Shown here in pieces: positions 3,998 through 55,625 of a DNA stretch of 64,000 bases. Positions within the stretch are counted from its first letter, which is position 1; each line of letters opens with the position of its first letter. The notes under the pieces are model-generated. The model was not told the origin of the DNA. It saw only the letters and a program-made list of their open reading frames with translations, and did not search any database. The stretch is from assembly GCF_046105845.1 (NCBI RefSeq), contig NZ_CP151004.1; one strand, written 5' to 3'. Source of the stretch: Escherichia coli. Its GTDB lineage: Bacteria; Pseudomonadota; Gammaproteobacteria; Enterobacterales; Enterobacteriaceae. Made by a program: the position numbers and the translations under genes.

Positions 3998-5650
<1,653 letters not shown>

Positions 5651-5722: not shown

Positions 5723-7036
<1,314 letters not shown>

Positions 7037-26840: not shown

Positions 26841-29507
26841 ATGGAACCTTTTAAATATATATGTCATTACTGGGGGAAATCCTCAAAAAGCCTGACGAAA
26901 GGAAATGATATTCATCTGTTGATTTATCATTGCCTGGATGTTGCAGCTGTTGCAGATTGCTGGTGGGATCAATCAGTCGTACTACAAAATGCTTTTTGCC
27001 GAAATGAAATGCTATCAAAACAGAAGGTGAAAGCCTGGCTGTTATTTTTCATTGCCCTTCATGATATCGGAAAGTTTGATATACGATTCCAATATAAATC
27101 AGCAGAAAGTTGGCTGAAATTAAATCCTGCAACGCCATCACTTAATGGTCCATCAACACAAATGTGCCGTAAATTTAATCATGGTGCAGCCGGTCTGTAT
27201 TGGTTTAACCAGGATTCACTTTCAGAGCAATCTCCCGGGGATTTTTTCAGTTTTTTTGATGCCGCTCCTCATCCTTATGAGTCCTGGTTTCCATGGGTAG
27301 AGGCCGTTACAGGACATCATGGTTTTATATTACATTCCCAGGATCAAGATAAGTCGCGTTGGGAAATGCCAGCTTCTCTGGCATCTTATGCTGCGCAAGA
27401 TAAACAGGCTCGTGAGGAGTGGATATCTGTACTCGAAGCATTATTTTTAACGCCAGCTGGGTTATCTATAAACGATATACCACCTGATTGTTCATCACTG
27501 TTAGCAGGTTTTTGCTCGCTTGCTGACTGGTTAGGTTCCTGGACCACAACGGATACCTTTCTATTCAAAGAAGATGCACCTTCAGGCATACAAGCGCTAA
27601 GAACATATTTTCAGTATAGACAACAGGATGCGTGTCGGGTACTGGAGTTGAGTGGCCTTGTATCAAATAAGCGTAGTTATGACGGCGTACATGCCTTACT
27701 GGACAATGGCTATCAACCAAGACAATTACAGGTGTTGGTTGATGCTCTTCCTACAGCTCCCGGGCTGACGGTGATTGAGGCACCTACGGGATCAGGTAAA
27801 ACCGAAACAGCGCTGGCCTATGCCTGGAAACTTATTGACCAACAACTTGCGGAGAGTGTTATTTTTGCCCTCCCTACACAAGCTACTGCAAATGCAATGC
27901 TCAGTAGAATGGAAGCGAACGCGAGCCGTTTATTTACCTCCCCAAATCTTATTCTTGCTCATGGTAATTCACGTTTTAACCACCTTTTTCAATCAATAAA
28001 ATCACGCGCATTTACTGAGCAGGGGCAAGAAGAAGCATGGGTTCAGTGTTGCCAATGGTTGTCACAAAGTAATAAGAAAGTGTTTCTAGGGCAAATAGGC
28101 GTTTGCACGATTGATCAGGTATTGATATCGGTATTGCCAGTTAAACATCGCTTTATCCGTGGTTTGGGAATTGGTCGAAGTATTTTAATTGTTGATGAAG
28201 TTCATGCTTACGACACGTATATGAACGGCTTGCTGGAGGCTGTGCTCAAGGCTCAGGCTGATGTGGGAGGGAGTGTTATTCTTCTTTCCGCAACTCTACC
28301 AATGAAACAAAAACAGAAACTTCTGGATACTTATGGTCTGCATACAGATCCAGAGGAAAATAACTCCGCATATCCACTCATTAACTGGCGAGGTGTGAAT
28401 GGTGCACAACGTTTTGATCTGTTAGCTCATCCAGAACAACTCCCGCCCCGCTTTTCGATTCGGCCAGAACCTATTTATTTAGCTGACATGTTACCTGACC
28501 TTAGGATGTTAGAGCGAATGATCGCAGCGGCAAATGCGGGTGCACAAGTCTGTCTTATCTGCAATTTGGTTGATGTTGCACAACTATGCCACCAACGGTT
28601 AAAGGAACTAAATAACACGCAAGTAGATATAGATTTGTTTCATGCGCGCTTTACGCTGAACGATCGTCGTGAAAAAGAGAATCGAGTTATTAGCAATTTC
28701 GGCAAAAATGGGAAGCGAAATGTTGGACGGATACTTGTCGCCACCCAGGTCGTGGAACAATCACTCGACGTTGATTTTGATTGGTTAATTACTCAGCATT
28801 GCCCCGCAGATTTACTTTTCCAACGATTGGGCCGTTTACATCGCCATCATCGCAAATATCGTCCCGCTGGTTTTGAGGTTCCTCTTGCCACCGTTTTGCT
28901 GCCTGATGGCGAAGGTTACGGACGACATGAGCATATTTATAGCAACGTTAGAGTCATGTGGCGGACGCAGCAACATATTGAGGAACTTAATGGAGCATCC
29001 TTATTTTTCCCCGATGCCTACCGGCAATGGCTGGATAGCATTTACGATGATGCTGAAATGGATGAGCCAGAATGGGTCATCAAAGGCATGGATAAGTTTG
29101 AAAGCGCTGAGTGTGAAAAGAGGTTCAAGGCTCGCAAGGTTCTGCAGTGGGCTGAAGAATATAGCTTGCAGGATAACGATGAAACAATTCTTGCGGTAAC
29201 GAGGGATGGGGAAATGAGCCTGCCATTATTGCCTTATTTACAAACGTCTTCAGGTAAACAACTGCTCGATGGCCAGGTCTACGAGGACCTAAGTCATGAA
29301 CAGCAGTATGAGGCGTTAGCACTTAATCGCGTCAATGTACCCTTCACCTGGAAACGTAATTTTTCTGAAGTAGTAGATGAAGATGGGTTACTTTGGCTGG
29401 AAGGGAAACAGAATCAGAATGGATGGATCTGGCAGGGTAATAATATTGTTATTACCTACACTCGGGATGAAGGGATGACCAGAGTCATCCCTGCAAATCC
29501 CAAATAA
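26841..29507 (+). CDS. cas3: Cas3 nuclease-helicase (type I-E)
   Basis: 888-aa ORF; N-terminal HD domain (HxxxxD, IALHDIGK), DEAD/DEAH helicase motifs (GSGKTE, DEVH). Confidence 0.95.
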   Translation: MEPFKYICHYWGKSSKSLTKGNDIHLLIYHCLDVAAVADCWWDQSVVLQNAFCRNEMLSKQKVKAWLLFFIALHDIGKFDIRFQYKSAESWLKLNPATPSLNGPSTQMCRKFNHGAAGLYWFNQDSLSEQSPGDFFSFFDAAPHPYESWFPWVEAVTGHHGFILHSQDQDKSRWEMPASLASYAAQDKQAREEWISVLEALFLTPAGLSINDIPPDCSSLLAGFCSLADWLGSWTTTDTFLFKEDAPSGIQALRTYFQYRQQDACRVLELSGLVSNKRSYDGVHALLDNGYQPRQLQVLVDALPTAPGLTVIEAPTGSGKTETALAYAWKLIDQQLAESVIFALPTQATANAMLSRMEANASRLFTSPNLILAHGNSRFNHLFQSIKSRAFTEQGQEEAWVQCCQWLSQSNKKVFLGQIGVCTIDQVLISVLPVKHRFIRGLGIGRSILIVDEVHAYDTYMNGLLEAVLKAQADVGGSVILLSATLPMKQKQKLLDTYGLHTDPEENNSAYPLINWRGVNGAQRFDLLAHPEQLPPRFSIRPEPIYLADMLPDLRMLERMIAAANAGAQVCLICNLVDVAQLCHQRLKELNNTQVDIDLFHARFTLNDRREKENRVISNFGKNGKRNVGRILVATQVVEQSLDVDFDWLITQHCPADLLFQRLGRLHRHHRKYRPAGFEVPLATVLLPDGEGYGRHEHIYSNVRVMWRTQQHIEELNGASLFFPDAYRQWLDSIYDDAEMDEPEWVIKGMDKFESAECEKRFKARKVLQWAEEYSLQDNDETILAVTRDGEMSLPLLPYLQTSSGKQLLDGQVYEDLSHEQQYEALALNRVNVPFTWKRNFSEVVDEDGLLWLEGKQNQNGWIWQGNNIVITYTRDEGMTRVIPANPK

Positions 29508-29921
29508 CTTCGGGAATGATTGGTATCAATGACGATAACAAGACCAATAACGGTTTATCCCTACTTAAGTAGGGAAGGTGCACAATGTACATCTTCTTTT
29601 AATTTCCCGGTATGAGATTTTATATTCACAGTATGAATATTTTATGTAATAAAATTCATGGTGATTATTATAACTAAAAATTTCTTTGATAATAAAACGA
29701 ATAACTTGCAGATTTGAAATGCATGCATTATTGTCTTTAAACAATTCAACACATCTTAATATATGCATAGGTTAATTGTATTAAACCAATGGATATATTT
29801 TTGCAGTGAATGTGATTATTGAATTAATTACGCCGTATTTTTTCTTTGTTTTTACCGATAACGGAAGTGTGCCGACGTATAGAAATGCAGGAGAAATGTC
29901 GGAGCATATGAAGGAGAACAA
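29508..29921 (+). promoter_or_regulatory. AT-rich intergenic region upstream of cse1 (Cascade operon promoter region)
   Basis: 414-bp strongly AT-rich tract between cas3 and cse1; in K-12 the corresponding region holds the H-NS-repressed, LeuO-activated Pcas promoter. Confidence 0.55.
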
Positions 29922-31430
29922 ATGAATTTGCTTATTGATAACTGGATCCCTGTACGCCCGCGAAACGGGGGGAAAGTCCAAATCATAAATCTGCAATCGC
30001 TATACTGCAGTAGAGATCAGTGGCGATTAAGTTTGCCCCGTGACGATATGGAACTGGCCGCTTTAGCACTGCTGGTTTGCATTGGGCAAATTATCGCCCC
30101 GGCAAAAGATGACGTTGAATTTCGACATCGCATAATGAATCCGCTCACTGAAGATGAGTTTCAACAACTCATCGCGCCGTGGATAGATATGTTCTACCTT
30201 AATCACGCAGAACATCCCTTTATGCAGACCAAAGGTGTCAAAGCAAATGATGTGACTCCAATGGAAAAACTGTTGGCTGGGGTAAGCGGCGCGACGAATT
30301 GTGCATTTGTCAATCAACCGGGGCAGGGTGAAGCATTATGTGGTGGATGCACTGCGATTGCGTTATTCAACCAGGCGAATCAGGCACCTGGTTTTGGTGG
30401 TGGCTTTAAAAGCGGTTTACGTGGAGGAACACCTATAACCACCTTCGTATGTGGGATCGATCTTCGCTCGACGGTGTTACTCAATGTCCTCACAATACCT
30501 CGTCTTCAAAAACAATTTCCCAATGAATCAAATACGGAAAACCAACCTACCTGGATTAAGCCTGTCAAGCCCAATGAATCTGTGCCAGCTTCGTCAATTG
30601 GGTTTGTCCGTGGCTTATTCTGGCAACCAGCGCATATTGAATTATGCGATCCCATTGGGATTGGTAAATGTTCTTGCTGTGGACAGGAAAGCAATTTGCG
30701 TTATACAGGTTTTCTTAAGGAAAAATTTACCTTTACAGTTAATGGGCTATGGCCCCATCCGCATTCCCCTTGTCTGGTAACAGTCAAGAAAGGGGAGGTT
30801 GAGGAAAAATTTCTTGCTTTCACCACCTCCGCACCATCATGGACACAAATCAGCCGAGTTGTGGTAGATAAGATTATTCAAAATGAAAATGGAAATCGCG
30901 TGGCGGCGGTTGTGAATCAATTCAGAAATATTGCGCCGCAAAGTCCTCTTGAATTGATTATGGGGGGATATCGTAATAATCAAGCATCTATTCTTGAACG
31001 GCGTCATGATGTGTTGATGTTTAATCAGGGGTGGCAACAATACGGCAATGTGATAAACGAAATAGTGACTGTTGGTTTGGGATATAAAACAGCCTTACGC
31101 AAGGCGTTATATACCTTTGCAGAAGGGTTTAAAAATAAAGACTTCAAAGGGGCCGGAGTCTCTGTTCATGAGACTGCAGAAAGGCATTTCTATCGACAGA
31201 GTGAATTATTAATTCCCGATGTACTGGCGAATATTAATTTTTCCCAAGCTGATGAGGTAATAGCTGATCTACGAGACAAACTTCATCAATTGTGTGAAAT
31301 GCTATTTAATCAATCTGTAGCTCCCTATGCACATCATCCTAAATTAATAAGCACATTAGCGCTTGCCCGCGCCACGCTATACAAACATTTACGGGAGTTA
31401 AAACCGCAAGGAGGGTCATCAAATGGCTGA
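29922..31430 (+). CDS. casA: Cascade large subunit Cse1/CasA
   Basis: 502-aa ORF MNLLIDNWIPVRPRNGGKVQIINLQSL... Confidence 0.93.
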   Translation: MNLLIDNWIPVRPRNGGKVQIINLQSLYCSRDQWRLSLPRDDMELAALALLVCIGQIIAPAKDDVEFRHRIMNPLTEDEFQQLIAPWIDMFYLNHAEHPFMQTKGVKANDVTPMEKLLAGVSGATNCAFVNQPGQGEALCGGCTAIALFNQANQAPGFGGGFKSGLRGGTPITTFVCGIDLRSTVLLNVLTIPRLQKQFPNESNTENQPTWIKPVKPNESVPASSIGFVRGLFWQPAHIELCDPIGIGKCSCCGQESNLRYTGFLKEKFTFTVNGLWPHPHSPCLVTVKKGEVEEKFLAFTTSAPSWTQISRVVVDKIIQNENGNRVAAVVNQFRNIAPQSPLELIMGGYRNNQASILERRHDVLMFNQGWQQYGNVINEIVTVGLGYKTALRKALYTFAEGFKNKDFKGAGVSVHETAERHFYRQSELLIPDVLANINFSQADEVIADLRDKLHQLCEMLFNQSVAPYAHHPKLISTLALARATLYKHLRELKPQGGSSNG

Positions 31431-31905
31431 TGAAATTGATGCAATAGCTTTATATCGAGCCTGGCAACAACTGGATAATGGAGCATGTGCGCAAATTAGA
31501 CGTGTTTCAGAACCTGATGAATTACGCGATATCCCTGCGTTTTATAGGCTGGTGCAACCTTTTGGTTGGGAAAACCCACGTCACCAGCAGGCTCTTTTGC
31601 GCATGGTGTTTTGCCTGAGCGCAGGAAAGAATGTCATCCGACATCAGGACAAAAAACCGGAGCAAATAACAGGTATCTCGTTGGGAAGAGCTTTAGCCAA
31701 TAGTGGAAGAATTAACGAGCGCCGTATCTTTCAATTAATTCGGGCTGACAGAACAGCCGATATGGTCCAGTTACGTCGATTACTTACTCACGCCGAACCC
31801 GTACTTGACTGGCCATTAATGGCCAGGATGTTGACCTGGTGGGGAAAGCGCGAACGCCAGCAACTTCTGGAAGATTTTGTATTGACCACAAACAAAAATG
31901 CGTAA
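31423..31905 (+). CDS. casB: Cascade small subunit Cse2/CasB
   Basis: 160-aa ORF, 8-nt overlap with cse1. Confidence 0.9.
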   Translation: MADEIDAIALYRAWQQLDNGACAQIRRVSEPDELRDIPAFYRLVQPFGWENPRHQQALLRMVFCLSAGKNVIRHQDKKPEQITGISLGRALANSGRINERRIFQLIRADRTADMVQLRRLLTHAEPVLDWPLMARMLTWWGKRERQQLLEDFVLTTNKNA

Positions 31906-31917
31906 GGAAACCTTTCT

Positions 31918-33009
31918 ATGTCTAACTTTATCAATATTCATGTTCTGATCTCTCACAGCCCTTCATGTCTGAACCGCGACGATATGAACATGCAGAAAGA
32001 CGCTATTTTCGGCGGGAAAAGACGAGTAAGAATTTCAAGTCAAAGCCTTAAACGTGCGATGCGTAAAAGTGATTATTACGCACAAAATATTGGTGAATCC
32101 AGTCTCAGAACAATTCATCTTGCACAATTACGTGATGTTCTTCGGCAAAAACTTGGTGAACGTTTTGACCAAAAAATCATCGATAAGACATTAGCGCTGC
32201 TCTCCGGTAAATTAGTTGATGAAGCCGAAAAGATTTCTGCCGATGCGGTTACTCCATGGGTTGTGGGAGAAATAGCCTGGTTCTGTGAGCAGGTTGCAAA
32301 AGCAGAGGCTGATAATCTGGATGATAAAAAGCTGCTCAAAGTTCTTAAGGAAGATATTGCCGCCATACGTGTGAATTTACAGCAGGGTGTTGATATTGCG
32401 CTTAGTGGAAGAATGGCAACCAGCGGCATGATGAGTGAGTTGGGAAAAGTTGATGGTGCAATGTCCATTGCGCATGCGATCACTACTCATCAGGTTGATT
32501 CTGATATTGACTGGTTCACCGCTGTAGATGATTTACAGGAACAAGGTTCTGCACATCTGGGAACTCAGGAATTTTCATCGGGTGTTTTTTATCGTTATGC
32601 CAACATTAACCTCGCTCAACTTCAGGAAAATTTAGGTGGAGCCTCCAGGGAGCAGGCTCTGGAAATTGCAACCCATGTTGTTCATATGCTGGCAACAGAG
32701 GTCCCTGGAGCAAAACAGCGTACTTATGCCGCTTTTAACCCTGCGGATATGGTAATGGTTAATTTCTCCGATATGCCACTTTCTATGGCAAATGCTTTTG
32801 AAAAAGCGGTTAAAGCGAAAGATGGCTTTTTGCAACCGTCTATACAGGCGTTTAATCAATATTGGGATCGCGTTGCCAATGGATATGGTCTGAACGGAGC
32901 AGCTGCGCAATTCAGCTTATCTGATGTAGACCCAATTACTGCTCAAGTTAAACAAATGCCTACTTTAGAACAGTTAAAATCCTGGGTTCGTAATAATGGC
33001 GAGGCGTGA
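31918..33009 (+). CDS. casC: Cascade backbone Cas7/CasC
   Basis: 363-aa [52 protein letters not shown]... Confidence 0.93.
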
Positions 33010-33011
33010 AC

Positions 33012-33686
33012 ATGAGATCTTATTTGATCTTGCGGCTTGCTGGGCCAATGCAAGCCTGGGGGCAGCCGACCTTTGAAGGAACGCGACCTACCAGAAGATT
33101 TCCGACCCGAAGCGGGTTATTAGGGCTACTCGGGGCTTGTCTTGGGATCCAACGTGATGATACTTCTTCATTACAGGCGTTATCAGAGAGTGTGCAATTT
33201 GCAGTGCGCTGCGATGAACTCATTCTTGACGATCGTCGTGTGTCTGTAACGGGGTTGCGTGATTACCATACAGTCCTTGGAGCGCGAGAAGATTACCGTG
33301 GTTTGAAAAGTCATGAAACGATTCAAACATGGCGCGAATATTTATGTGATGCCTCCTTTACCGTCGCTCTCTGGTTAACACCCCATGCAACGATGGTTAT
33401 CTCAGAACTTGAAAAAGCAGTATTAAAGCCTCGGTATACACCCTACCTGGGGCGAAGAAGTTGCCCACTAACACACCCGCTTTTTTTGGGGACATGTCAG
33501 GCATCGGATCCTCAGAAGGCGCTATTAAATTATGAGCCCGTTGGCGGCGATATTTATAGTGAGGAATCAGTTACAGGGCATCATTTAAAATTTACGGCGC
33601 GCGACGAACCGATGATCACCTTACCTCGACAATTTGCTTCCCGAGAATGGTATGTGATTAAAGGAGGTATGGATGTATCTCAGTAA
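33012..33686 (+). CDS. casD: Cascade Cas5/CasD
   Basis: 224 aa from MRSYLILRLAGPMQAWGQPTFEG... Confidence 0.9.
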   Translation: MRSYLILRLAGPMQAWGQPTFEGTRPTRRFPTRSGLLGLLGACLGIQRDDTSSLQALSESVQFAVRCDELILDDRRVSVTGLRDYHTVLGAREDYRGLKSHETIQTWREYLCDASFTVALWLTPHATMVISELEKAVLKPRYTPYLGRRSCPLTHPLFLGTCQASDPQKALLNYEPVGGDIYSEESVTGHHLKFTARDEPMITLPRQFASREWYVIKGGMDVSQ

Positions 33687-34272
33687 AGTCATCATTGCCA
33701 GGGCCTGGAGCAGGGATCTTTACCAACTTCACCAGGGATTATGGCATTTATTTCCAAACAGACCGGATGCTGCTCGTGATTTTCTTTTTCATGTTGAGAA
33801 GCGAAACACACCAGAAGGCTGTCATGTTTTATTGCAGTCAGCGCAAATACCTGTTTCAACTGCCGTTGCGACAGTCATTAAAACTAAACAGGTTGAATTT
33901 CAACTTCAGGTTGGTGTTCCACTCTATTTTCGGCTTCGGGCAAATCCGATCAAAACTATTCTCGACAATCAAAAGCGCCTGGACAGTAAAGGGAATATTA
34001 AACGCTGTCGGGTTCCGTTAATAAAAGAAGCAGAACAAATCGCGTGGTTGCAACGTAAATTGGGCAATGCGGCGCGCGTTGAAGATGTGCATCCCATATC
34101 GGAACGGCCACAGTATTTTTCTGGTGATGGTAAAAGTGGAAAGATCCAAACGGTTTGCTTTGAAGGGGTGATCACCATCAACGACGCGCCAGTGTTAATA
34201 GATCTTGTACAGCAAGGTATTGGGCCAGCTAAATCGATGGGATGTGGCTTGCTATCTTTGGCTCCACTGTGA
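33673..34272 (+). CDS. casE: Cas6e/CasE crRNA endoribonuclease
   Basis: 199-aa ORF MYLSKVIIARAWSRDLYQLHQGLWHLF...; overlaps cas5 end. Confidence 0.93.
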   Translation: MYLSKVIIARAWSRDLYQLHQGLWHLFPNRPDAARDFLFHVEKRNTPEGCHVLLQSAQIPVSTAVATVIKTKQVEFQLQVGVPLYFRLRANPIKTILDNQKRLDSKGNIKRCRVPLIKEAEQIAWLQRKLGNAARVEDVHPISERPQYFSGDGKSGKIQTVCFEGVITINDAPVLIDLVQQGIGPAKSMGCGLLSLAPL

Positions 34273-34287
34273 TTGAGGTGTAATAAA

Positions 34288-35491
<1,204 letters not shown>

Positions 35492-48292: not shown

Positions 48293-48637
48293 CTATTTGC
48301 TCATCATCTTGCGCACCAACTGCATAAACAGCTCCTTCTCTTCTGCACTCAAACGCCCCAAAAATTCCTCATCCACACTGTCACCAATCGGTATCGCCGC
48401 AGCAAGTACCTTTTCTCCTTCGGCAGTCAGCCAGACAAAGCGACGCCGCTTGTCAGCGGCGTCATGTTCACGTCTGACTAAGCCACGATTTTCCATTCTT
48501 GCCAACATTTCTGCCAGCGTTGCTTTGGTGCTGACTGCTGCTTCTATCAGTGCCACCTGTTCGATACCAGGCTTATCAGCAATGGCGCGCATCACCGCGT
48601 ACTGTGGTTTGGTCAGGTCAGGTAACTCGACCCCGGC
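48293..48637 (-). pseudogene. 5'-truncated MarR/SlyA-family regulator remnant
   Basis: Frame encodes ...LPDLTKPQYAVMRAIADKPGIEQVALIEAAV...RMENRGLVRR... (winged-helix MarR core) but is closed by an in-frame TGA at 48638-48640; about 25 N-terminal residues and any promoter missing. Confidence 0.55.
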
Positions 48638-52404: not shown

Positions 52405-52644
52405 GGGGTTATGTCCGGTTCCCTGATATTAAATGGGGTGTGATGGTTTTTATTTTCGTTGTAATCACATAAGGCGCACATGATACCGGAGTTAATCATT
52501 TCAGGGGAAGAAGCGAACGGCGAGTTCTTGATGCTGGTTCCGGGAAAGATGCTGTTTTGCAGCTTTTGCGTGATGCTTATGAAGCAAGTACGCAAAATTG
52601 TATCGGTTGGCTAACCCTTCTTCTTTAGAGTCATAGTGCCTTTT

Positions 52645-52690: not shown

Positions 52691-53035
52691 ATGTCCGGCA
52701 AGCGTATCTCTCGTGAAAAACTGACGATTAAAAAAATGATCGATCTTTATCAAGCGAAATGCCCGCAGGCGTCAGCGGAGCCGGAGCATTACGAGGCGTT
52801 GTTTGTTTACGCGCAAAAGCGGCTGGATAAATGTGTGTTCGGCGAAGAGAAACCAGCCTGTAAGCAGTGTCCGGTGCACTGTTACCAGCCTGCAAAGCGT
52901 GAAGAGATGAAACAGATTATGCGTTGGGCCGGGCCGAGAATGCTGTGGCGTCATCCGATCTTAACCGTGCGTCATCTCATCGATGACAAGCGTCCGGTGC
53001 CGGAGTTGCCAGAAAAATATCGTCCAAAGAAATAA
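52691..53035 (+). CDS. ygbA: nitrous oxide-stimulated promoter family protein YgbA
   Basis: 114-aa ORF, Cys-rich (CPQ...CKQCPVHC). Confidence 0.8.
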   Translation: MSGKRISREKLTIKKMIDLYQAKCPQASAEPEHYEALFVYAQKRLDKCVFGEEKPACKQCPVHCYQPAKREEMKQIMRWAGPRMLWRHPILTVRHLIDDKRPVPELPEKYRPKK

Positions 53036-53073
53036 ATCTGCCGGAGAGCCATACTCTCCGGCAAATAAGGCGT

Positions 53074-53502
53074 TTACGCTTTGGTGGCAATCAGGATGGC
53101 TGATGCTTTGATCAATGCAATAACGCGTGAGCCAGTGGTGAGTTTCATTTCATCCTGACTTTCATTTGTTACCACTGCCACAATTTCAAAACCCGCATCC
53201 GTTTTGATATGGACAGTGGCGTTCACTGCGCCTTCGGTGATTGTCGACACGCTGCCAGCAAACTGGTTGCGAGCAGAGAATTTCAGTCCACAGTCTTCCG
53301 TTGCCAGCGTTACCCACGGGGCTTTAATCAGGGCAATCGCTTCTTTCCCTTTCGCCAGACCCAGAGCCTGCTGGCTGCTGTGAGTCACAATTGCCACCAG
53401 CTTTGCACCACCTGCCAGCGTCAGTTCTACTTCGTCATTCACCGCGCCCATTGCTACTGCGCTAACTGTTCCGGTTAATTGATTTCTTGCTGAAACTGCC
53501 AT
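53074..53502 (-). CDS. stand-alone di-Mop (tandem TOBE) molybdate/oxyanion-binding-like protein
   Basis: About 142 aa from MAVSARNQLTGTVSAV...; two TOBE-like repeats (SARNQLTG...; SARNQFAG...); AAGGAGG RBS 4 nt before ATG; alternative start 15 nt upstream. Confidence 0.65.
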   Translation of the reverse strand: MAVSARNQLTGTVSAVAMGAVNDEVELTLAGGAKLVAIVTHSSQQALGLAKGKEAIALIKAPWVTLATEDCGLKFSARNQFAGSVSTITEGAVNATVHIKTDAGFEIVAVVTNESQDEMKLTTGSRVIALIKASAILIATKA

Positions 53503-53546
53503 ACTGCCTCCTTTCATTGAATGTTGATCGAGTATAACCACATCTG

Positions 53547-55625
53547 TTAAATCAATGCCGATTTATCAATTCCCAGTCGCTTCATCCGTGACAGCAGAGT
53601 CGTGCGTTTCAGCCCCAGACGTTGCGCAGCGCCTTTAGGCCCGGCAACCACGCCGTTGGTTTCTTTCAGCACGCGAACAATCAACTGATATTCATCTTCG
53701 CCCTCCTGGGCGACAACCGTTGCGGCAGGCGGCGTTTCTGGTTCCGGTAAAACAATATCTGGCAGTGACAGCTGCAGCACGTTGCCGCGTGTTAGCAATA
53801 CCGCGCGCTCAATGACGTTTTCCAGTTCGCGTACGTTACCCGGCCACTCCATGTTGCTCAGGATGCGCAGCGTCTCGGCAGGAATGCTGTCGATATTGCG
53901 CCCCAGACGACGGGCAATTTTGAAGGTAAAGGCTTTCGCCAGCAGCGGAATATCTTCCGGACGCTCGCGTAGTGGCGGCAGGTGAATCGGGAATACGTTC
54001 AGGCGGTAATAGAGATCGCTACGGAACTCACGGTCGGCGACCATTTTTTTCAGATCGCGGTTAGTTGCGGCGATTAGACGCACGTCCGTCTGAATGATTT
54101 TGTTGCTGCCGAGACGTTCAAACTCCTGTTCCTGTAATACACGCAGCAACTTCGGCTGTAACTCCAGTGGCATATCGCCCACTTCGTCGAGGAACAGGGA
54201 GCTTTTATCCGCCAGTTCAAAACGACCGATACGCTGGGCGCTGGCACCGGTAAAAGCCCCACGCTCATGACCAAACAGATCGCTCTCTAGCAATCCGGCA
54301 GGCATCGCCGCGCAGTTCATTTTTACCATGCGGCGATTATTACGCCCACTGAGATTATGGATCGCGCGGGCAATCAGCTCTTTACCCGTGCCAGTTTCAC
54401 CGAGGATCAGCACGGTACTGTCGCTTTGCGCCACCATTTCAACTTGTTTAAGTACGCTGTACATGGCTTCGCTGCGGCCAATAATCTCGCCAAATTCACT
54501 ATCAACATTGTTGAGCTGCTCGGTCAGGGCGAGGTTTTCATCAACCAGCCGTTCTTTCAGACGATGGATTTCCTGATAGGCGAGGGCGTTATCGACAGCG
54601 ATTGCCACACGTTCGGCAATCTGGCGCAGTAAATTCAGATTGGTAGTGGTAAACACTTTCTCTTCGCATTGCGCCAGTTTCAGCACGCCCAGCATGGTGT
54701 CGCCAGACATCAGCGGTAACAGGCACAAGGTTTGAATCTGGTTGCCCCAGGTGTCGAACAACATGCGTTCATAGGGGGCTAAATCGTCCCGCTCGTGGAG
54801 ATTAATCAGCAGCATCTCTTTGCTTTTGAACACGCGTTCGGTGAGGGTTCCGGCTTCATCGACTTCGCTCTGTTCGTGGGCGGGATGCTGTTTATCAAGA
54901 TAGTGAGTGGAGTAGATGTTGAGTTTGTTTTTACGGTGGCTGCGTAAGACGATGCTGATATCGTCAATGTCGAAGTAGTAATGGATTTCTTTGGCGACTT
55001 CGCTGACCAGTTCGTCCATATCCAGGCGGGAAAGCACCGCGTTGGTAATGGCAACCAGGATGCGGAAGTTATCGCGCTCCCGGCATAACAACTCATAGTC
55101 GACATTATTGACGACGCGGCTCTGGATTTGTTCGGTGACGACAGAAACGATCTGCGTAAATGTTTGCAGACGATTGAACTCTTTTTCGCTCCAGGGGCGA
55201 TCGTCATAACGAATAAATTCACAGCCACCAAAAATATGCCCTTCCGCCGCCAGTGGCATCAGGCAATAGTGACCAAATTTGGGGTATAGCCCACCTGCGG
55301 CCAGCTGCGGCCAGGTTTCACAAAATTCTTCGTAACTGCAATGCAGCGTATCAGGGCGCGACAAAATGCTGCGTACCGGACCGTGTGCCAGAACAGTTTC
55401 GTCTTCATATTTAATGGGGGTGTCTTTTTCACGCGATGCGTAATAAGACGCACGTTGAGTCTGCGCTTGCCACAACACAATAGCCGCGTTGTCGGCGAGC
55501 GCAGAACGCTTTACCAGTTGCGAAAGAGCCTCACACAGCGAGGCCAGATCGGGCTGCTGCAATAGTGTCCGAGTGATGTCGAACAACCCTTGTTGTCCGA
55601 GATCACTCATCGGTGTATATGACAT
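53547..55625 (-). CDS. fhlA: formate hydrogenlyase transcriptional activator (sigma-54 dependent)
   Basis: 692 aa from MSYTPMSDLGQQGLFDITRTLLQQPDL...; GAF domains, AAA+ sigma-54 interaction (GETGTGKE, GAFTGA), C-terminal HTH. Confidence 0.95.
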   Translation of the reverse strand: MSYTPMSDLGQQGLFDITRTLLQQPDLASLCEALSQLVKRSALADNAAIVLWQAQTQRASYYASREKDTPIKYEDETVLAHGPVRSILSRPDTLHCSYEEFCETWPQLAAGGLYPKFGHYCLMPLAAEGHIFGGCEFIRYDDRPWSEKEFNRLQTFTQIVSVVTEQIQSRVVNNVDYELLCRERDNFRILVAITNAVLSRLDMDELVSEVAKEIHYYFDIDDISIVLRSHRKNKLNIYSTHYLDKQHPAHEQSEVDEAGTLTERVFKSKEMLLINLHERDDLAPYERMLFDTWGNQIQTLCLLPLMSGDTMLGVLKLAQCEEKVFTTTNLNLLRQIAERVAIAVDNALAYQEIHRLKERLVDENLALTEQLNNVDSEFGEIIGRSEAMYSVLKQVEMVAQSDSTVLILGETGTGKELIARAIHNLSGRNNRRMVKMNCAAMPAGLLESDLFGHERGAFTGASAQRIGRFELADKSSLFLDEVGDMPLELQPKLLRVLQEQEFERLGSNKIIQTDVRLIAATNRDLKKMVADREFRSDLYYRLNVFPIHLPPLRERPEDIPLLAKAFTFKIARRLGRNIDSIPAETLRILSNMEWPGNVRELENVIERAVLLTRGNVLQLSLPDIVLPEPETPPAATVVAQEGEDEYQLIVRVLKETNGVVAGPKGAAQRLGLKRTTLLSRMKRLGIDKSALI

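Follow-up and report, generated by a model that had tools for sequence, protein, structure and literature searches.

In the window (the whole stretch of 64,000 nucleotides of Escherichia coli DNA that was analysed), fhlA is followed on the same strand by a small gene, here called mop. The raw sequence and the ORF list placed its ATG at 53502 and its TAA at 53074-53076 (MAVSARNQLTG...IATKA). An earlier note, made from the letters of this DNA, had described an ORF of about 142 amino acids with a strong AAGGAGG ribosome-binding site, lying about 45 bp past the fhlA stop on the same strand and convergent with ygbA. We observed that this description held throughout (142 amino acids, the ribosome-binding site 4 nt before the ATG, a distance of 44 nt, and ygbA on the plus strand). 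The interval that the note had given, 53036-53546, takes in the ORF together with its spacer and terminator. The coordinates are collected in Table 1.

Table 1. Features at the fhlA-mop-ygbA locus (positions are those of the window)
Feature	Position	Strand	Remarks
ygbA, 114 aa	52691..53035	+	Convergent with the mop ORF
Intrinsic-terminator-like hairpin, 14 pairs, tail TTATTTCTTT	53036..53066	-	Terminator scan
Segment missing from K-12-type genomes, 476 bp	53067..53542		blastn against MG1655 and MAFFT junction alignment with outgroups
mop CDS, 142 aa, di-Mop (tandem TOBE) molbindin (predicted)	53074..53502	-	WP_000301062.1; RefSeq name 'TOBE domain-containing protein'
fhlA-mop spacer, 44 nt	53503..53546	-	fhlA stop TAA at 53547-53549
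Ribosome-binding site AAGGAGG	53507..53513	-	4 nt 5' of the mop ATG; read from the sequence
fhlA, formate hydrogenlyase transcriptional activator, 692 aa	53547..55625	-	Gene upstream of mop in the putative transcription unit

The (A/T)GGAGG motif 5' of mop was kept in nearly all the orthologous loci. The ORF lister had also offered a 155-aa version with a GTG start, but this was dropped, since its 5' extension was not conserved while the ATG and its ribosome-binding site are the start that is conserved across genera. The hairpin begins 7 nt past the mop stop and abuts the ygbA stop on the opposite strand, and its tail is T-rich. FhlA of the window was 99.6% identical to K-12 FhlA, and the gene is annotated as fhlA in A16, CFT073 and 042. 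The composition of mop (GC 50.8%, GC3 48.3%, against 51.3% for the whole window) is native; the earlier note had judged the codon usage to look native. We conclude that mop is a genuine and intact gene, which closes the hydrogenase-maturation/fhlA operon.

Some observations were also made elsewhere in the window. A small 'hypothetical protein' ORF is annotated between mutS and ygbA (44 aa; 52480-52614, plus strand); at this place A16 has an ORF of 59 aa (5445-5624) and 042 one of 44 aa on the opposite strand (4615-4749). The annotation of this ORF, within the divergent promoter region of mutS and ygbA, is probably an artefact. Between pphB and rpoS, A16 and 042 carry genes B, C and D of a hydroxyarylic acid decarboxylase together with a MarR regulator. 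Compared with these genomes, the window lacks about 2 kb at ~48624-48629 (the whole of subunit B, the greater part of subunit C and the beginning of the MarR gene), and this gap is a deletion within the polymorphic mutS-rpoS region. The window also has a complete type I-E cas operon (cas3, casA-E, cas1; 26841-35205, plus strand) of the K-12-like sequence variant, whereas A16, otherwise syntenic, has the other, non-alignable I-E variant at the same place. The two variants are an existing polymorphism of E. coli.

We further examined the mop product using profile and structure searches. It contains two Mop/TOBE domains and no other domain: the TOBE model of Pfam (PF03459, E=8.8e-35) and the Mop model of NCBIfam (TIGR00638, E=4.1e-42) each matched in two stretches. 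The tandem repeats named in the earlier note were thus recovered, and the HMM check that it had proposed gave a very strong match. When all PDB sequences were searched with phmmer, the best match was ModG (1H9J, E=5e-33; query residues 1-140 against chain residues 4-143), followed by the E. coli ModE di-Mop domain and then by single-domain Mop/Tub proteins. The identity with ModG of Azotobacter vinelandii was 48.6% over 140 aligned residues. The AF2 model of the monomer, made from 34 aligned sequences, had a pLDDT of 96.1 and a pTM of 0.88, and Foldseek ranked 1H9J first for this model (TM 0.95, rmsd 1.3 Å).

The models of related families matched only in part. NF007957, the ModE model, was matched over profile positions 124-261 of 263 with 88 bits, against a cut-off of 369. 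The mop product has no N-terminal winged-helix DNA-binding domain, and its ORF starts 44 nt past the fhlA stop. The ModC and WtpC models were matched through their C-terminal TOBE portions only, far below the cut-offs, and the layout of ModC and ABC transporters (an ABC ATPase domain N-terminal to a single TOBE) was not found in the mop product.

To compare the binding sites, the oxyanion-contact positions of Tub/Mop/ModE-type sites were taken from the literature (PMC11980592). In Tub, the type-1 sites are formed by the backbone of A20-V21-N22, and the type-2 sites by S4, R6, K60 and A61 along with S40 from the neighbouring subunit (PMC11980592). The first repeat of the mop product has S4, R6, A20-V21-N22, T40, K60 and A61, which are the residues of Tub at the same numbers except for T40 in place of S40. 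The second repeat has the equivalents at +72 (S76, R78, A92-V93-N94, T112, K132 and A133). All 16 contact positions were kept in 45-46 of the 46 enterobacterial orthologues and were identical in ModG; twelve of them did not vary at all, and three were kept in 45 of the 46. The second repeat of ModE, unlike that of the mop product, is degenerate at these positions. Judged by its sequence, the mop product is an orthologue of A. vinelandii ModG, hence a ModG-type molbindin and not a ModE, with both repeats predicted to be competent for binding. By analogy with ModG, it should form a trimer with about eight molybdates at two types of interface site, and its ligand would be molybdate or tungstate, bound with nM-uM affinity.

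We also evaluated how mop might be transcribed. The terminator scan found no terminator on the minus strand between fhlA and mop, and the consensus scan found no sigma-70 consensus promoter in the fhlA 3' end or the spacer. With a spacer of 44 nt, no terminator within it and a terminator directly after mop, co-transcription with fhlA is plausible, and read-through from fhlA is the simplest reading. The hyp promoters are FhlA/sigma-54- and FNR-dependent, and with such read-through mop would be expressed from them.

Just past the fhlA stop, the spacer contains a -10-like hexamer, TATACT (53531-53536, minus strand), at 34 nt 5' of the mop ATG. This hexamer was identical at -34 in Escherichia, Citrobacter and Pseudocitrobacter, and a TATACT/TATAAN hexamer was seen at -34 to -54 in 29 of the 36 loci in which fhlA precedes mop, but in only 1 of the 10 loci (plus 2 distant relatives) without fhlA upstream. 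It may be a -10 element without a recognisable -35, which leaves room for a separate, dedicated mop promoter at this site. A search for a ModE operator (CGNTATATA-N6-TATATANCG, with up to 3 mismatches) gave 0 matches in the whole window, and a partial 'GTTATAC' half-site, noticed in the spacer on inspection by eye, does not qualify as a ModE box.

When we compared the window with MG1655, we observed that the homology ended at 53032 and restarted at 53546 (blastn). In MG1655 the stops of fhlA and ygbA are 36 bp apart with no gene between them; the earlier note, too, had given the K-12 order without a gene there. The missing block of 476 bp comprises the mop CDS, its ribosome-binding site and most of the spacer. 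K-12 keeps the homologous terminator hairpin directly after fhlA, and the changes in its stem are compensatory between the two alleles. The comparison of window positions 53020-53066 with positions 6440-6470 of the K-12 sequence also brought out a difference in YgbA, which has 117 aa in K-12 (...KKPHE) and 114 aa in the window (...KK). The difference comes from an 8-bp insertion in K-12, next to the deletion scar. The K-12 C-terminus is the derived one, since the 114-aa form is common to E. albertii, Escherichia sp. and Citrobacter.

The distribution of mop was assessed in 5426 complete E. coli genomes. The gene was present in 1892 of these (35%), in each case as a single chromosomal copy annotated as 'TOBE domain-containing protein' or 'molybdopterin-binding protein', while the K-12-type junction, counted with a 59-bp probe across it, was found in 3502. 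The two together account for 5394 genomes, and 32 show neither. Among the carriers are CFT073, 042, ATCC 25922, IAI39 and one ST648 strain, and among the non-carriers are K-12 derivatives, C41/Rosetta (BL21 background), W, O111 and O157:H7. We take the carriers to belong to phylogroups B2, D and F, and the non-carriers to A, B1 and E; this pattern (kept in B2/D/F, lost in A/B1/E) fits one old deletion. We also noted that the 511-bp mop segment (53036-53546) was 100% identical to A16, although the surrounding 10.9 kb were only 97.7% identical, and that WP_000301062.1, which is identical to the window protein, occurs in both CFT073 (B2) and 042 (D). The identity of this segment suggests either very strong constraint or recombinational mosaicism at the locus.

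A scan with one genome per species found close mop orthologues, of 69-99% identity, at 46 enterobacterial loci, and their flanks were checked by tblastn. fhlA lay immediately upstream of mop in 36 of the 46, from more than 10 genera (E. albertii, an unnamed Escherichia species, Citrobacter, Pseudocitrobacter, Raoultella, Klebsiella, Kluyvera, Enterobacter, Pluralibacter, Yokenella, Lelliottia and Kosakonia), usually with ygbA convergent downstream. The order fhlA-mop-ygbA is kept in E. albertii, Citrobacter, Klebsiella, Raoultella, Kluyvera, Enterobacter and Kosakonia. In Phytobacter and Kosakonia S29, mop comes directly after hypE, without fhlA, and the orthologues of Serratia, Cedecea and Edwardsiella are solitary genes in unrelated surroundings. 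In Enterobacter sp. EA-1, residues 1-107 matched in one frame of a 427-bp stretch (6001-6427) and ORF extraction gave no intact ORF of 130-150 aa; this may be a frameshifted copy.

Against its orthologues, mop showed a dN/dS of 0.03-0.09. Its dS values, 0.36 with E. albertii and about 1.0 with Citrobacter, were comparable to those of fhlA and ygbA. Since the dN/dS is low, the dS is like that of the flanks and the synteny is conserved, mop was ancestral and was then lost in the K-12 lineage. The earlier note had suggested that the gene may be strain-variable. This stood (1892 genomes with the gene against 3502 with the K-12-type junction), with the refinement that the variation comes from the loss of an ancestral gene (K-12/B1/O157) and not from a gain. 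We conclude that mop has been passed on vertically under strong purifying selection, that part of E. coli has lost it, and that the fhlA-mop arrangement is ancestral for Enterobacteriaceae.

The explanation that we favour, and consider likely, is that the mop product is a ModG-type cytoplasmic buffer or store for molybdate/tungstate, made alongside the proteins of hydrogenase-3 maturation and regulation. The protein would be a small cytoplasmic molbindin made of two Mop/TOBE domains only and, if it behaves as ModG of A. vinelandii does, would assemble into a trimer with several molybdate/tungstate oxyanions bound at its subunit interfaces. mop would close the hyp-fhlA transcription unit and most likely depend on read-through from fhlA for its expression. 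Formate dehydrogenase H (FdhH) is a molybdenum-selenium enzyme, and Mop would be made under anaerobic, formate-induced conditions, when FdhH and other anaerobic molybdoenzymes are assembled. K-12, BL21, W and O157:H7 would owe the absence of the gene to a single 476-bp deletion in the lineage from which they descend. The basis of this explanation is the domain composition, the fold, the conservation of the ligand residues, the synteny, the distribution and the purifying selection, and from these we infer the trimer, the bound oxyanion, the co-transcription with fhlA, the physiological role and the contribution to FdhH synthesis. Any role in the formate hydrogenlyase system must be dispensable, because about 65% of E. 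coli genomes are without mop. The synteny with fhlA may simply be inherited gene order, considering that the orthologues of Serratia, Cedecea and Edwardsiella are unlinked.

The occurrence of mop in only 35% of E. coli genomes could also be read as the acquisition of an accessory gene by some lineages, and genes are known to be gained and lost at the fhlA-mutS interval, a hotspot that is also the insertion site of SPI-1 (PMC7232297). This reading is contradicted by the outgroup synteny (the same position in E. albertii, Escherichia sp., Citrobacter, Klebsiella, Raoultella, Kluyvera, Enterobacter and others) and by a dS that tracks the flanking core genes. The GC content is native, mobile-element features are absent, and K-12 retains the terminator hairpin that follows mop elsewhere. 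Horizontal acquisition is hence very improbable, and we rejected it. The label 'transcriptional regulator modE' under which the gene appears in the same paper (PMC7232297) might instead point to a decaying remnant of a modE paralogue that has no function of its own. A decaying gene would not, however, be expected under purifying selection of the strength seen here, with frame, start codon and ribosome-binding site intact across genera and both predicted sites complete. There is also no upstream trace of a helix-turn-helix, because fhlA ends 44 nt before the mop start. We found this reading scarcely credible and rejected it too.

The remaining alternatives accept a binding protein and differ from a buffer or store in what it would do. 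Mop could preferentially sequester tungstate, and so shield molybdoenzyme synthesis from tungstate poisoning or supply tungsten. Molbindins bind both oxyanions, the homologue Tub stores tungstate with the same ligand set, and the TudG/ModG architecture is reported in more species predicted to use tungsten than in species predicted to use molybdenum (PMC11980592). The closest sequence is nevertheless the molybdate-binding ModG, and sequence alone cannot tell molybdate from tungstate. We know of no tungsten-dependent enzyme and no TupABC system in E. coli, and we regard a role directed at tungstate as decidedly unlikely. Another possibility, raised in general form in the earlier note, is that Mop is a regulatory sensor through which the formate hydrogenlyase regulon would respond to molybdate status. 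It might contact FhlA, assemble into mixed oligomers with the di-Mop domain of ModE, or compete with ModE for molybdate. Such a role would agree with the fixed position of mop directly after fhlA across more than 10 genera, and with the likeness (37% identity, TM ~0.89) to the domain through which ModE dimerises. It is also general knowledge that the expression of hyc and fdhF in E. coli is molybdate-dependent, through ModE and MoeA. This regulation was, however, worked out in K-12, which has no mop and is still molybdate-responsive for hyc and fdhF expression. Moreover, Phytobacter and Kosakonia S29 have kept mop behind hypE although fhlA is not there, in Serratia and Edwardsiella it is unlinked to fhlA, no ModE-box consensus occurs anywhere in the window, and full ModG-like predicted sites in both repeats are typical of storage molbindins. 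A sensor therefore appears unlikely. In a more far-reaching version, which we consider highly unlikely, Mop would be an ancestral molybdate relay dedicated to the formate hydrogenlyase system. Translated from the hyp-fhlA transcript, it would either supply the Moco pathway with molybdate for FdhH or act, through Mop-Mop contacts, on transcription that depends on FhlA and ModE. If this were true, the K-12-based models of molybdate control of hyc/fdhF would describe a derived, reduced state, and the retention of mop in B2/D/F (which are rich in ExPEC) would reflect a fitness gain where molybdate is scarce or tungstate is present.

Molybdenum homeostasis and formate hydrogenlyase regulation have E. 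coli K-12 as their reference organism, and this strain has, to our knowledge, no free-standing molbindin. The enterobacterial ancestor had a molbindin attached to hyp-fhlA, and about one third of sequenced E. coli, among them the model pathogens CFT073 and 042, keep it, which makes K-12 a reduced reference for molybdenum homeostasis. The natural presence/absence contrast would allow a cytoplasmic molybdate store to be related to anaerobic molybdoenzyme synthesis, tungstate tolerance or fitness in the gut and urinary tract.

The gene already has a RefSeq annotation, and there is one mention of it in the literature, under a wrong name. Lerminiaux et al. (2020), in their study of the fhlA-mutS hotspot, labelled it 'modE' (PMC7232297); this is a misnomer, since the protein has no DNA-binding domain and both its repeats are complete. 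In the literature searched we found no functional study of the gene and no paper joining 'modG' and 'hydrogenlyase', and its RefSeq accession and locus tag gave no relevant match. The finding thus fills a gap and corrects a published mislabel, but opens no new field. The mop product is an uncharacterised but unsurprising member of a well-known family, whose fold and likely chemistry are known.

Among the members of this family, ModG (PDB 1H9J/1H9K/1H9M) has the same length as the mop product and the same architecture of two tandem Mop domains. ModG of A. vinelandii was reportedly described by Delarbre et al. in 2001. In that organism modG lies in the mod molybdate-transport locus and serves molybdenum homeostasis for nitrogenase, whereas mop stands at the end of the hyp-fhlA operon in a non-diazotroph; given this different gene context, the role of mop may differ from that of modG. 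The di-Mop domain of ModE (PDB 1H9R/1H9S, 1O7L, 1B9M) shares the tandem Mop fold, and the ligands of its first repeat (S, R, T, K, A) are common to the mop product. However, its second repeat has lost the SARN and KA motifs (N/D/P/N there), and it is attached to an N-terminal DNA-binding domain, while the mop product keeps both repeats complete and has no such domain. The single-domain Mop/Tub proteins (C. pasteurianum MopII, 1GUG; S. ovata Mop, 1FR3; E. limosum Tub, 9BEB) correspond to one repeat each, with the type-1 (A-V-N) and type-2 (S, R, T/S, K, A) ligand positions seen in each repeat of mop. These molbindins have about 70 aa and form hexamers; the mop product fuses two such domains, and a trimer of it would give the equivalent assembly.
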